Below, piece after piece: positions 43,001-46,664 of a stretch of DNA of 64,000 bases; position 1 is the first letter of the stretch; every line of letters begins with the position of its first letter. This DNA comes from Escherichia coli. Its GTDB lineage: Bacteria > Pseudomonadota > Gammaproteobacteria > Enterobacterales > Enterobacteriaceae. The stretch lies in the NCBI RefSeq assembly GCF_051903065.1, contig NZ_CP178438.1. One strand, 5' to 3'. Made by a program: the position numbers.

Positions 43001-46000
43001 TGTTTCTGAACACCTGACCGTATAACAGCGCTCCTTAATTTCTTTGTTAGGGACGTCCAATGCAAGTGATGGCGGCAAACATATCCATCCACTGGATGCT
43101 TACACCTGACAGATGATGGGAATATAAATTGCCACTTAAAATCAGAAATTGCGTAAGGGTATTTTCGCGCGAGCCCTGGCGGGAGACTTGTTTTACCCTC
43201 ACCTTCGCAAAGATCCTTTTCATGAAGATCACGAACCTTTTCAATATGCAATTTAAGGGGTTCAACAAGCTTTTCAGGTAACATCGTGACTCGATCTTTA
43301 CCGCCTTTGCCACGAAATACATAGACATTCCTTGACTCAAAATCGATATCTTTAACTCTTAGCATTAATAGTTCTGCTTTCCTTAGACCACAACCATATA
43401 AAAGCGAAAACATCAGTTTATAGCTACCGGATAGCTGATTGATGATACTCATTGCTTCGTTATGAGATAAGACGGATGGAACCCGTTTAGGTGCGCGTGC
43501 TTTTATCGTATCAGGTAGTAAAGTAAGTTCTCTCTGAAGTATATGTTTATACATGAAGACGATAGCGCAAAGCGCCAAGTTTTGAGTAGACGCCGTAACT
43601 TGTCGGTTTACGGCTAAATATGTCAAAAAATTAGTTACCTCTTGTTCCCCCATGTTCTTAGGATGCTGTTTTTTGTTAAACAAAATGAAGCGTTTTATCC
43701 AAAGTAAATAGGTTTTTTCAGTCTGAATTGAGTAATGCTTGGTTCGCATAACCTGTCTGATGCTTTCAAGGAAAGGTGAACGAGTCATGTAAGCTCCTTT
43801 GTTGATTATCGAGTGTGTTACTGAGACTTCTCAGTAACACCTGATGATAAGGAGGCTAAATCAAGATAAGGCATTGATATTAATAATATTACCCCATTAT
43901 GGGGTGGAGACATTACTGAGAAGTCAGTAATGTCGTAAATTAAAAGTAAATTAAGTCCTTAACTAGCTTCTTAAGTTATTGATCTTCAGTAAACTCATAG
44001 GTATAAATTTGTTTTGCCTTTCGGATGTTACTGAGAGGTCTACATAATAACTGTTAACCTCTGAGGAAGAATTGTGAAACTATCACTAATGGTAGCTATA
44101 TCGAAGAATGGAGTTATCGGGAATGGCCCTGATATTCCATGGAGTGCCAAAGGTGAACAGCTCCTGTTTAAAGCTATTACCTATAACCAATGGCTGTTGG
44201 TTGGACGCAAGACTTTTGAATCAATGGGAGCATTACCCAACCGAAAGTATGCGGTCGTAACACGTTCAAGTTTTACATCTGACAATGAGAACGTATTGAT
44301 CTTTCCATCAATTAAAGATGCTTTAACCAACCTAAAGAAAATAACGGATCATGTCATTGTTTCAGGTGGTGGGGAGATATACAAAAGCCTGATCGATCAA
44401 GTAGATACACTACATATATCTACAATAGACATCGAGCCGGAAGGTGATGTTTACTTTCCTGAAATCCCCAGCAATTTTAGGCCAGTTTTTACCCAAGACT
44501 TCGCCTCTAACATAAATTATAGTTACCAAATCTGGCAAAAGGGTTAACAAGTGGCAGCAACGGATTCGCAAACCTGTCACGCCTTTTGTACCAAAAGCCG
44601 CGCCAGGTTTGCGATCCGCTGTGCCAGGCGTTAAATTGCACAAGGAAGTCATGCGTATAATCCTGCCCATTCTATTAATTATTTCAAGTTTGCCAGCTTC
44701 AGCAATTGTTGTTCGTCACGATGTTACTGACAAAAAATATAATGCTGACGCTACGGATTTTGCACCTTTGGCAACACTTTATGTTGATGGGGCTCATGGC
44801 TCATTAATTAAGCCAGATTGGATTGTAACTGCCGCTCACGCAACTTTCTGCATAAGTCCTGGCAGTTACCTCCGCTTAAATAATGGCTATCACAAAGTTG
44901 AAAGCGTTTTCGTTCATAAAGACTATCAACCCAGTAAAAGTCACGACATCGCTTTAATAAAATTAGTAAATCCAATAAATGATGTAAAACCGGCTAATCT
45001 TTACGAACAAACGAATGAGCTCGCAAAAATAACTTGGTTTATCGGTGTCGGCGGTACTGGAAATGGGCTGACCGGACAAATTGTCGATAACTATGAAAAT
45101 GGTGGGGTTTTACGAAAAGCTCAGAATCAAATCGAACAAGCAGAAGGGCCGCTATTAAAATTTAAATTTGATAGAGATGATGTAGCTTTGCCATTAGAGG
45201 GGGTTTCAGGTAGTGGTGATAGTGGCGGCCCGGCATATTCCACCATTGACGGGACGCATTACTTACTTGGTATTAGCTCAAGAGTTGAAGGTGGGGATAT
45301 CGGGGAATACGGTGTCATGGAAGTGTATTCTAGAGTCTCATTTTTTACGTCTTGGATTGAAAAAATCACTGCAGGTGAAGAAGCTTTGCAGCAGCAATTG
45401 GCATTTCCCAAATTGCAGCGCCTTCCTGCAGGACTCACCGAACAGATTTTACCCCAAGTCTGTGCTGTTATTAGCTTGAAACCAAATGCAGTTTAACAAG
45501 TTTCTTAATTTTGTTCTGGCAATAAACCAGAGCTTATTTTCAGTGAGGTCTTCACTGAATTGGCGCTACCATTTTAAATAGAACATAGGAACTTCTAAAT
45601 GAAATGCATATTTTTGATTTTACTGGTTATAGCCTTTTCAGCTAACGCAATAATCATCAGGCATGATACGTCAGACGAAGATTATCAAAAGTTAGCAAAA
45701 AGCGATAATTCTACTGTTACTTTCTATGGTGTCTATAAAGGCGAAGATATTGTTGCGGGAACCGGAAGTATCATCGCCGACAAATGGATTGTTACTGCTG
45801 CGCACGTTGCTAATTACTTAACTAAAGGTGGCAAAGTTCAATTTAAGGATGCTTTTTATACAATTGAAAAAATTGTAAAGCATCCACTTTGGAAAGATCA
45901 GCAACTACCTAATGATATAGCTCTTGTTAAATTATCTTCTGCTATTGAAAACGCGACAATTGCTAAGTTGAATGACTTACCAAACGAAGCTGGCAAAATT

Positions 46001-46664
46001 GCAACTTTCGTCGGGCGTGGTGATCATGGGAATGGTGTTACTGGAGTTGTCGGTGCGGATAAACAGTTAAGAGCGGCAAACAATGTGGTGACTGTAGCAA
46101 AAGAACAGTGGGTGCAGTTTGCATTTGACGAGGGAGAGAAAGCCTTGACATTGGAAGGAATAAGTGGCCCCGGAGATTCTGGCGGGCCTGCATATATTAC
46201 CCATGCTAATTCAGTTTGTATTATTGGTGTAAGCTCGTGGCAAAATGCCGAATCAACCGGTTGGCAAGAAGGTAAGTACGGCGTTATTGAAAATTATTCA
46301 CGTATTTCACACTTCAGAAATTGGATTGAACAAACTATGTTGCAAGATTCACAGAAATCTCCTGAAGTCTGTTCTGATATTGTGTTGTAACCAAATACAA
46401 TTTAACAAGTTGCTTAATTTCGTTCCGGCCACAAACGGCGTGGCCTCGAATAGACTGCCTACGCTGCGCTGCGGCAGCCAATTAGCAAAGCGTTAGCAGG
46501 CATTCGGGGTTTTAGGGGTCTGACGCTCAGTGGAACGAAAACTCACGTTAAGGGATTTTGGTCATGAGATTATCAAAAAGGATCTTCACCTAGATCCTTT
46601 TAAATTAAAAATGAAGTTTTAAATCAATCTAAAGTATATATGAGTAAACTTGGTCTGACAGTTA

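Follow-up and report, generated by a model that had tools for sequence, protein, structure and literature searches.

The stretch of Escherichia coli DNA analysed here, 64,000 nucleotides of contig NZ_CP178438.1 (RefSeq assembly GCF_051903065.1) and referred to below as the window, contains two paralogous genes for predicted secreted serine peptidases, P1 and P2, in an integron behind the trimethoprim resistance gene dfrA1. A first inspection of the DNA without database searches (the sequence-only reading) had placed the pair directly past the attC site of dfrA1, in cassette orientation, in an integron on a Tn7-family transposon. This placement was confirmed, both genes being located on the plus strand downstream of intI9 (minus strand), attI and dfrA1. 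The locus raises the question of how such genes came to lie behind a resistance gene: are they two cassettes or one, where do they come from, and do they serve their enterobacterial host? From the comparisons described below, we consider it probable that positions 44631-46492 form a single two-gene cassette in an IntI9 integron, which in turn is carried by a Tn7-like transposon inserted at attTn7, that the cassette is of marine Alteromonadales origin, and that it is likely a passenger.

The array has the order attI9, dfrA1, P1-P2, a cassette without a convincing open reading frame (ORF) and a cassette with a small ORF. The features of the integron are the following (aa, amino acids):

42829-43788, minus strand: intI9-type integron integrase, intact, 319 aa.
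44054-44630, plus strand: dfrA1 cassette, with the coding sequence at 44074-44547 and the attC at 44543-44636.
44631-46492, plus strand: probable fused two-gene cassette P1-P2, 1,862 bp, second in the array.
44651-45496, plus strand: P1, predicted secreted S1 serine peptidase, 281 aa, catalytic triad H63/D99/S191.
45491-45598, plus strand: degenerate attC remnant in the P1-P2 spacer, with R'' GTTTAAC, the L'' arm and the first stem kept.
45599-46390, plus strand: P2, predicted secreted S1 serine peptidase, 263 aa, stop codon at 46388-46390.
46400-46498, plus strand: complete attC of the fused cassette, with R'' ATTTAAC (46400-46406) and R' GTTAGCA (46492-46498).
46493-51826, plus strand: third cassette, 379 bp without its insert, no convincing ORF, interrupted by Tn3, attC at 51746-51832.
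51827-52294, plus strand: fourth cassette, small ORF at ~51853-52116, attC at 52187-52300.

The P1-P2 unit is bounded at its 5' end by G^TTAAAT and at its 3' end by AAAGCG^TTA, the caret marking the junction. Homology with the metagenomic array L003, in which P1 is 91% identical at the amino acid level, begins at G^TTAAATTGCA / G^TTAAATTGCACAAGG and ends at AAAGCG^TTA, and the sequences outside these points are unrelated. L013 (81% amino acid identity), a different array with a decayed integrase, agrees in both boundaries and in the 102-bp spacer between the genes. Hence the unit is found in three arrays (the window, L003 and L013) with different neighbours on both sides, and the spacer is conserved in all three. 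The preceding dfrA1 cassette is 99.7% identical to the Tn7 copy and 98.9% identical to the copy in hotspot 3 of SXT integrative and conjugative elements (ICEs), and the identity with both ends at the R' box of its attC (44633-44636). Homology breakpoints with L003, L013, L004 (an array with P1 as a solo cassette), Tn7 and SXT all fall exactly at the edges of the unit. Moreover, G^TT boundaries flank the P1-P2 unit as a whole, and not P1 or P2 singly.

When folded at its exact site, the bottom strand of the attC that follows P2 (-16.5 kcal/mol) pairs into an R box and an L box separated by a spacer of 2 unpaired nt, with one extrahelical base in the L box and a three-way structure at the terminus. 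The attC sites of dfrA1 (bottom strand -36.3 kcal/mol, z = -7.8), of the third cassette and of the fourth cassette (bottom strand -32.1 kcal/mol) fold alike, as does the attC from L004. The last two bases of the R' box after P2 depart from GTTRRRY. This attC is 85% identical to that of the solo P1 cassette in L004, and 87.5% identical to that of orfc2 in the SXT array. The spacer between P1 and P2 keeps only the 5' half of such a site, with CATAGGAAC in place of the R' core. Since this attC has lost its 3' half, R' included, the integrase would be expected to move P1 and P2 only together, via the attC after P2, and excision of the fused cassette would yield one 1,862-bp circle joined at ...AGCAAAGCG^TTAAATTGCACAAGG. 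The sequence-only reading had proposed inverse-core-like sequences overlapping both stop codons. This holds for GTTTAAC at the P1 stop, whereas ATTTAAC is located 10 nt past the true stop of P2. It had also found no clean downstream core for either gene, which is correct for P1 only, because P2 is followed by the R' box GTTAGCA. It had left unclear whether each gene carries its own attC: only the site after P2 is complete, P1 has a 5' half-site, and the two genes make up one fused cassette.

The alternative that P1 and P2 are two independent adjoining cassettes, each with a functional attC, has some features in its favour, because the P1 stop overlaps a good R'' box (GTTTAAC) followed by an L''-like arm of the same type as after P2, and because a solo P1 cassette exists elsewhere. 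However, no GTT core and no closing R/L stem were detected on either strand of 45491-45598, and the attC scan returned no candidate in this spacer. Besides, the pair has been inherited jointly with its conserved spacer in three arrays with different neighbours, and the solo P1 cassette bears the attC that follows P2 in the window instead of a completed version of the spacer. We therefore consider two separate cassettes quite unlikely. At 45513-45533 the spacer contains a terminator-like hairpin, followed by TTATTTT, which is the first stem of the attC remnant; it could lower expression of P2 relative to P1.

As the sequence-only reading had observed, the two genes share a 3' flank. Exactly two copies of the motif TAACAAGTT(T/G)CTTAATTT are present in the window, one at 45494 and one at 46403, where chance would give 0.02. 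It is accompanied by a direct repeat of ~100 nt (45427-45527 and 46341-46436) that is 76% identical, higher by eye over the last ~55 nt, and that contains C-terminal codons and the first half of an attC. This repeat is what would speak for the tandem duplication that had been suggested, in the sense of a single protease gene recently doubled within the transposon. The gene bodies argue otherwise, with 37% identity between the proteins and ~55% between the DNA sequences. In addition, separate P1-type and P2-type orthologues are present, alone or paired, in Shewanella chromosomes at 68-72% identity (70-72% for the orthologues that each gene has of its own there), and the same pair occurs at 81-91% identity in marine metagenome arrays. 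A recent duplication is thus very improbable. An ancient duplication within the protease family is likely, and it is compatible with a fused cassette. The attC family found after P2 is also present behind orfc2 of SXT and behind an unrelated 142-aa cassette of L004, and because the same family follows unrelated cassettes, the shared 3' motif can be attributed to a host-specific attC family. Sedentary chromosomal integrons typically have such families. P2 ends in ~13 codons of P1-type sequence, the stretch past its stop (CCAAATACAATTTAAC) is of the same type, and positions 46391-46399 (CCAAATACA), which precede the attC, are a relic of P1 C-terminal codons. As read from these alignments, two components make up the shared flank, namely a host-specific attC family and ~40 nt of coding tail of the P1 type.

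Where did the unit come from? Homologues of P1 were found in Shewanella (70%), Pseudoalteromonas, Thalassotalea and Alteromonas, and those of P2 in Shewanella sp. JM162201 (72%) and in S. decolorationis, S. xiamenensis and S. seohaensis (66-68%). Colwellia is a further genus with homologues, nearly all of which are from marine Alteromonadales. Both L004 (81%) and L005 (70%), the latter being a Shewanella chromosome array that also has an Hfx_Cass5 protein, contain P1 as a solo cassette. P1 and P2 are in tandem in a non-array context in Shewanella sp. JM162201 (L014), and a P2-type gene is located alone amid housekeeping genes in S. decolorationis (L010). The 5' leader TGCACA(A/G)GGAAGT(C/T)ATGCG is conserved in chromosomal and cassette forms. 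An exact-pattern scan for the P1-P2 junction in 100,044 GTDB species genomes gave no match. The source is probably the cassette pool of the sedentary chromosomal integrons of marine Alteromonadales (Shewanella-like hosts). As the pair is present in marine metagenome arrays at 81-91% identity, it is older than its arrival in the transposon.

The pair may have originated either from two adjacent paralogous cassettes that were fused by loss of the first R' box or from capture of a chromosomal pair as a whole. The unit might be available in three states, namely a chromosomal tandem without attC (L014), solo and fused marine cassettes, and a cassette of a clinical mobile integron; that this makes up a rare natural system is an unlikely proposition. 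If L014 represents the state before the cassette, the acquisition of attC by a cassette, an unsolved question, could become directly testable in this family. If the proteases act together, for instance one activating the other, the fusion would be a selected trait, which would now be spreading with trimethoprim resistance in Enterobacterales.

Several points weigh against a fused cassette with the properties described here. Unconstrained folding of the two downstream regions with their flanks gave z = -1.0 and -1.7, both non-significant; the former value is that of the attC after P2, which folds no better than shuffled sequences under these conditions and adopts the canonical fold only at the exact site. 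The informative evidence came from folding at exact sites and from the comparative breakpoints. The attC scan, which combines a regular expression with folding, is crude: it finds the four true attC sites of the window together with weak false positives in coding DNA, and it misses the attC of P1 in L005. A non-canonical R' box in the P1-P2 spacer is conceivable. With respect to origin, a chromosomal pair like that of L014 may have been captured whole, with the solo P1 cassette arising by deletion between the ~100-nt direct repeats. Finally, the signal peptides, expression, secretion route, activity and specificity of P1 and P2 are all deduced from sequence.

The identity of the integron itself follows from its integrase, which matches TIGR02249 at 420.8 bits (cutoff 265) and is identical at 314 of its 319 residues (98%) to the V. 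cholerae integrase of SXT-ICE hotspot 3. Identity to IntI2 is 54%, and the ORF is intact. The canonical Tn7 and its class 2 integron, which the sequence-only reading had used as yardstick, are thus not the appropriate reference. Assignment to class 2 was rejected on account of the 54% identity to IntI2 and the lack of an internal stop. A published intI9 primer, TTGAGTAGACGCCGTAACT (PMC6541609), is present verbatim at ~43583-43601. The V. cholerae reference integrase adjoins traF-traH-traG and is followed by dfrA1 and by DUF1801, helix-turn-helix (HTH), AraC and glyoxalase genes. In ICEVchInd5, hotspot 3 contains orfc5b, orfc5a, orfc4, orfc3, orfc2, dfrA1 and intI9 (PMC2791158, Table S1). We take the V. 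cholerae reference to be SXT hotspot 3 because its traF/traH/traG neighbours and its cassette list match that table. The segment 42716-44636, which comprises intI9, attI and dfrA1, has 98.9% DNA identity to the ICE segment over 1,924 bp, ending at the end of the dfrA1 attC. Sequence identity thus points to an IntI9 ("class 4") integron on another vehicle, with other cassettes after dfrA1. Its location is inside a Tn7-like transposon at attTn7, and not in hotspot 3 (s073-traF); such a location is a historical attribute and not a mechanistic one.

IntI9 is most closely related to integrases from marine gammaproteobacteria, among them Rheinheimera, Aliiglaciecola and Alishewanella, in which one such integrase adjoins a chromosomal array of cassettes. 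In the array near an IntI9-like chromosomal integrase of Alishewanella sp. HL-SH06 (L016), positions 7626-8963 encode a group II intron reverse transcriptase (RVT_1 and GIIM domains), oriented like the genes called on either side; this may be an attC-associated group IIC intron.

The IntI9 integron appears to be a discrete module of ~4.7 kb, whose two ends coincide between the Tn7-like element and SXT hotspot 3. Homology extends from 113 bp past the intI9 stop to ~66 nt past the last attC, these ~66 nt being common to the end of the window array and the distal end of the hotspot-3 integron. The module ends at 42716 and 52295-52360 in the window, and at 5512 and ~650-736 in L015. The attI region (43800-44045) contains several copies, direct and inverted, of a (G/C)(A/T)TTACTGAGA..(T)CAGTAA(C/T)-type motif, for example at 43818-43840, 43910-43932 and 44025-44040, which may be candidate IntI9 binding sites or a regulatory palindrome. 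Transcription of the cassette presumably starts from the integron promoter that drives dfrA1, and P1 and P2 would each be translated from a ribosome-binding site of their own. A promoter scan of 43600-46600 did not exceed the expectation from shuffled sequences (9 hits against 7.2), and accordingly no Pc promoter was assigned. In the fourth cassette, RefSeq annotates a 120-aa "hypothetical protein" (WP_306804508.1, 51754-52116) whose start lies inside the attC at 51746-51832; a start near 51853, giving a product of ~87 aa, is more likely.

What do the two genes encode? Both products match Pfam Trypsin (PF00089; E = 8e-16 for P1 and 1.1e-17 for P2), and they share 37% amino acid identity, in agreement with the proposal of two paralogous S1 protease genes. 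The motifs TAAH, DIAL and GDSGGP, first recognized in the sequence-only reading, retained their assignment in a proper alignment, where they correspond to H57, D102 and S195 of TMPRSS2; H63, D99 and S191 are invariant in a family alignment of 57 homologues. P1 begins at the ATG at 44651, preceded by the ribosome-binding site AAGGAAG. Position 44637, where the sequence-only reading had let the gene begin, is just inside the cassette, and the start of the longest ORF, TTG at 44609, was rejected because it is located in the dfrA1 attC. An AlphaFold2 (AF2) model, made for P1 only, has the chymotrypsin fold (double beta-barrel), with a predicted local distance difference test (pLDDT) score of 91.6 and a predicted template modelling (pTM) score of 0.88. 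Foldseek matched this model to kallikrein, TMPRSS2 and FXIa, with TM-scores of 0.6-0.7, E ~1e-13 and 19-25% identity. No curated NCBIfam family matches P1 or P2. Ratios of nonsynonymous to synonymous substitution (dN/dS) against homologues were 0.08-0.48, which indicates a family generally under purifying selection.

The N-termini of P1 and P2, MRIILPILLIISSLPASA^IVV and MKCIFLILLVIAFSANA^III, are short, basic and then hydrophobic (mean Kyte-Doolittle value 2.9-3.2), and end in an AxA motif. By this heuristic of hydropathy and motif they are Sec-like, consistent with the signal peptides that had been anticipated, and in P1 the predicted signal peptidase cut is after ASA18, which would make Ile19 the first mature residue there, compared with Ile18 in P2. 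The family consensus is AxA-IVIRHD, with R, H and D nearly invariant among the 57 members. This suggests that signal peptidase makes the mature N-terminus and exposes a conserved Ile-(Val/Ile)-(Val/Ile)-Arg-His-Asp; because AxA cleavage would expose this N-terminus, a propeptide is seemingly unneeded. The residue at the position of trypsin D189 is Val in P1 and Ile in P2 (alignment to TMPRSS2). Specificity is therefore probably not trypsin-like, and "trypsin-like" refers to the fold only. Taken together, P1 and P2 are predicted to be Sec-exported S1A serine endopeptidases with intact triads. In the marine donor, their role was likely extracellular protein degradation or nutrient scavenging.

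PADLOC gave weak matches to the protease domains of LmuA (7.8e-10 for P1, 1.1e-4 for P2) and RT-Protease, the one feature that speaks for intracellular effector proteases of an anti-phage defence system. These matches span only the generic trypsin fold, however, and the proteins have predicted N-terminal signal peptides and lack sensor or partner domains, while the genomic neighbours differ among arrays; we give this explanation hardly any credence.

Next, we consider whether the proteases serve their present hosts. Over the ~3.7 kb around the genes, identity is complete (100%) with the chromosome of E. coli 23CRST027 and reaches 99.9% with six further complete E. coli chromosomes and one P. 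mirabilis record. The element was detected in 7 of 5,426 complete E. coli genomes, in which the arrangement is rare, and also in Proteus and Providencia. RefSeq gives the gene order lpfA2, IS3-family transposase, integron integrase, dfrA1, "trypsin-like serine protease", "S1 family peptidase", TEM-1/Tn3, tnsE-D-C-B-A and glmS, and P1 and P2 are accordingly already in the databases under generic names. No description of the element or array was found in the full-text literature; subscription journals were not covered, and an earlier description is possible. The name "IntIPac" proved to be, for the most part, a label from automatic annotation.

An adaptive virulence or colonisation function, selected in its own right in Enterobacterales, is compatible with the occurrence of the element in human, bovine, chicken and seawater E. 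coli as well as in Proteus and Providencia, with the intactness of both ORFs in every enterobacterial copy examined, and with the purifying selection on the family in general. Nevertheless, the eight copies compared (seven from E. coli and one from P. mirabilis) show 99.9% identity or more over 42800-46520, which left no time for decay, and for this reason intact ORFs are uninformative on selection in these hosts. The low frequency among complete E. coli genomes also speaks against such a function, linkage to dfrA1 and blaTEM-1 suffices for spread, and no secretion system or partner genes travel along. We regard this function as unlikely. In Enterobacterales the cassette is most likely a passenger, co-selected with dfrA1 and, in the window, with blaTEM-1.

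The vehicle of the integron has the following features (IS, insertion sequence):

41086-60695, no strand assigned: Tn7-like transposon of 19.6 kb, a length that includes the IS3-family and Tn3 elements inserted later.
~41361-42557: IS3-family IS between the left end of the Tn7-like transposon and intI9.
46515-51464: complete Tn3, with blaTEM-1 (46662-47522), tnpR (47705-48298) and tnpA (48267-51431).
52859-60562, minus strand: tnsE, tnsD, tnsC, tnsB and tnsA, as ORFs, with PGAP names in the identical copies.

The termini of the transposon, read from the sequence, are TGTGGG at 41086 and CCCACA at 60690-60695, and at least three repeats of a TnsB-type site, GACAAAATAG(A/T)(T/C)CTAAAAT, are present inside each end. 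It is flanked by a 5-bp target duplication, CCTTC (41081-41085 and 60696-60700), and inserted 25 bp past the glmS stop, which is attTn7; the P. mirabilis copy becomes homologous exactly at 41086, in agreement with the left boundary. TnsB and TnsE are 63% and 46% identical to the Tn7 proteins, and the tns DNA is 66-76% identical. The element thus has tnsA-tnsB-tnsC, the selectors tnsD and tnsE, TGT...ACA ends, a 5-bp duplication and a site downstream of glmS, and it is a Tn7-like transposon distinct from Tn7. The sequence-only reading had considered that P1 and P2 might be backbone genes of Tn7-type elements. This was ruled out, since tblastn of both proteins against canonical Tn7 returned nothing, and the blastn matches were confined to the dfrA1 cassette and the diverged tns genes.

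The IS3-family element and Tn3 are later insertions into the transposon. The transposase of the former consists of two ORFs with a programmed frameshift (41408-42483, minus strand), and the IS was found in every copy examined, including that of P. mirabilis. Tn3 was inserted 22 nt past the attC of P2, within the ORF-less third cassette, with the target duplication TTTTA at 46510-46514 and 51465-51469. The form without Tn3 is present in E. coli USMARC-50748 and P. mirabilis H110. The extent of tnpR given above is from the ORF listing, compared with 558 nt in the RefSeq annotation. In E. coli 23CRST027, Tn3 is itself invaded by IS26 and a sul3/estX/aadA1/qacL region. The chromosomal flank (22177-29048 and 34244-40405) contains type III effector genes (one EspY4-like and another) and an lpf operon for long polar fimbriae; in the identical RefSeq genome, the annotation marks the chaperone gene of this operon as frameshifted. 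These effector genes and the lpf operon indicate an attaching-and-effacing-type E. coli host background.

The locus therefore adds to a known integron class a new carrier and a fused cassette without resistance genes, a real but fairly ordinary case of hitch-hiking cargo. Its description as unusual cargo is borne out in so far as it is rare and no paper on it was found, and is weakened in so far as the SXT IntI9 integron also has non-resistance cassettes after dfrA1; since orfc2 to orfc5b stand behind dfrA1 there, non-resistance cargo is the norm for the IntI9 class and the surprise shrinks. An IntI9-class integron, known from SXT/R391 ICEs, is now found on a second vehicle, one that targets the universally conserved attTn7, with an intact integrase and with cassettes straight from the marine Alteromonadales pool still in its array. 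It provides a concrete case of non-resistance genes, predicted to encode secreted proteases, entering E. coli, Proteus and Providencia by co-selection with dfrA1, and documents a cassette fusion older than its clinical context. A dfrA1 gene from this source will go undetected in polymerase chain reaction (PCR) screens directed at intI1, intI2 and intI3. In enteric hosts the default expectation is that the proteases are passengers, and the relevance of the case is mainly for integron and transposon specialists.

Among known systems, the window shares with the SXT/R391 IntI9 ("class 4/IV") integron of ICEVchInd5, ICEVchBan5/9 and ICEPalBan1 (Wozniak et al. 2009, PMC2791158) an integrase that is 98% identical and dfrA1 as first cassette. 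The carrier there is an ICE, whereas here it is a Tn7-like transposon at attTn7, and the cassettes are orfc2 to orfc5b there and the P1-P2, ORF-less and small-ORF cassettes here; the ICE array has no protease genes. Like the class 2 integron of Tn7 (intI2*-dfrA1-sat2-aadA1), the array begins with dfrA1 near the left end of a tnsABCDE transposon downstream of glmS. In contrast, the window lacks sat2 and aadA1, Tn7 lacks P1/P2-like sequence, and the integrase of the window is intact, while IntI2 usually has a stop at codon 179.

With the peptidases, the comparison concerns structure. The VesA, VesB and VesC proteins of V. cholerae are secreted S1A peptidases and type II secretion substrates, with a signal peptide and a chymotrypsin-fold domain bearing the H/D/S triad. 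P1 and P2 resemble them in their predicted signal peptides and in a chymotrypsin-fold catalytic domain with this triad, and differ from secreted S1A peptidases in being single-domain proteins of 263-281 aa. Compared with TMPRSS2, two cysteines of the classical disulfides are missing from them, namely the one that follows the catalytic His and the one at position 191, and their best PDB matches reach only 19-25% identity.

Fused cassettes are also known from clinical class 1 integrons, as in the aadA1-blaOXA-9 fusion of Tn1331, in which the attC between the two cassettes is truncated. There, as probably here, two once-separate cassettes became one mobile unit through a truncated attC, but the fusion in the window joins two paralogous non-resistance genes and, because it is also present in marine arrays, is older than the clinical element. 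Finally, the sedentary integrons of Shewanella and other Alteromonadales likewise have P1 homologues in long same-strand arrays of small genes and one attC family across unrelated cassettes, whereas the cassette of the window resides in a mobile resistance integron in Enterobacterales.

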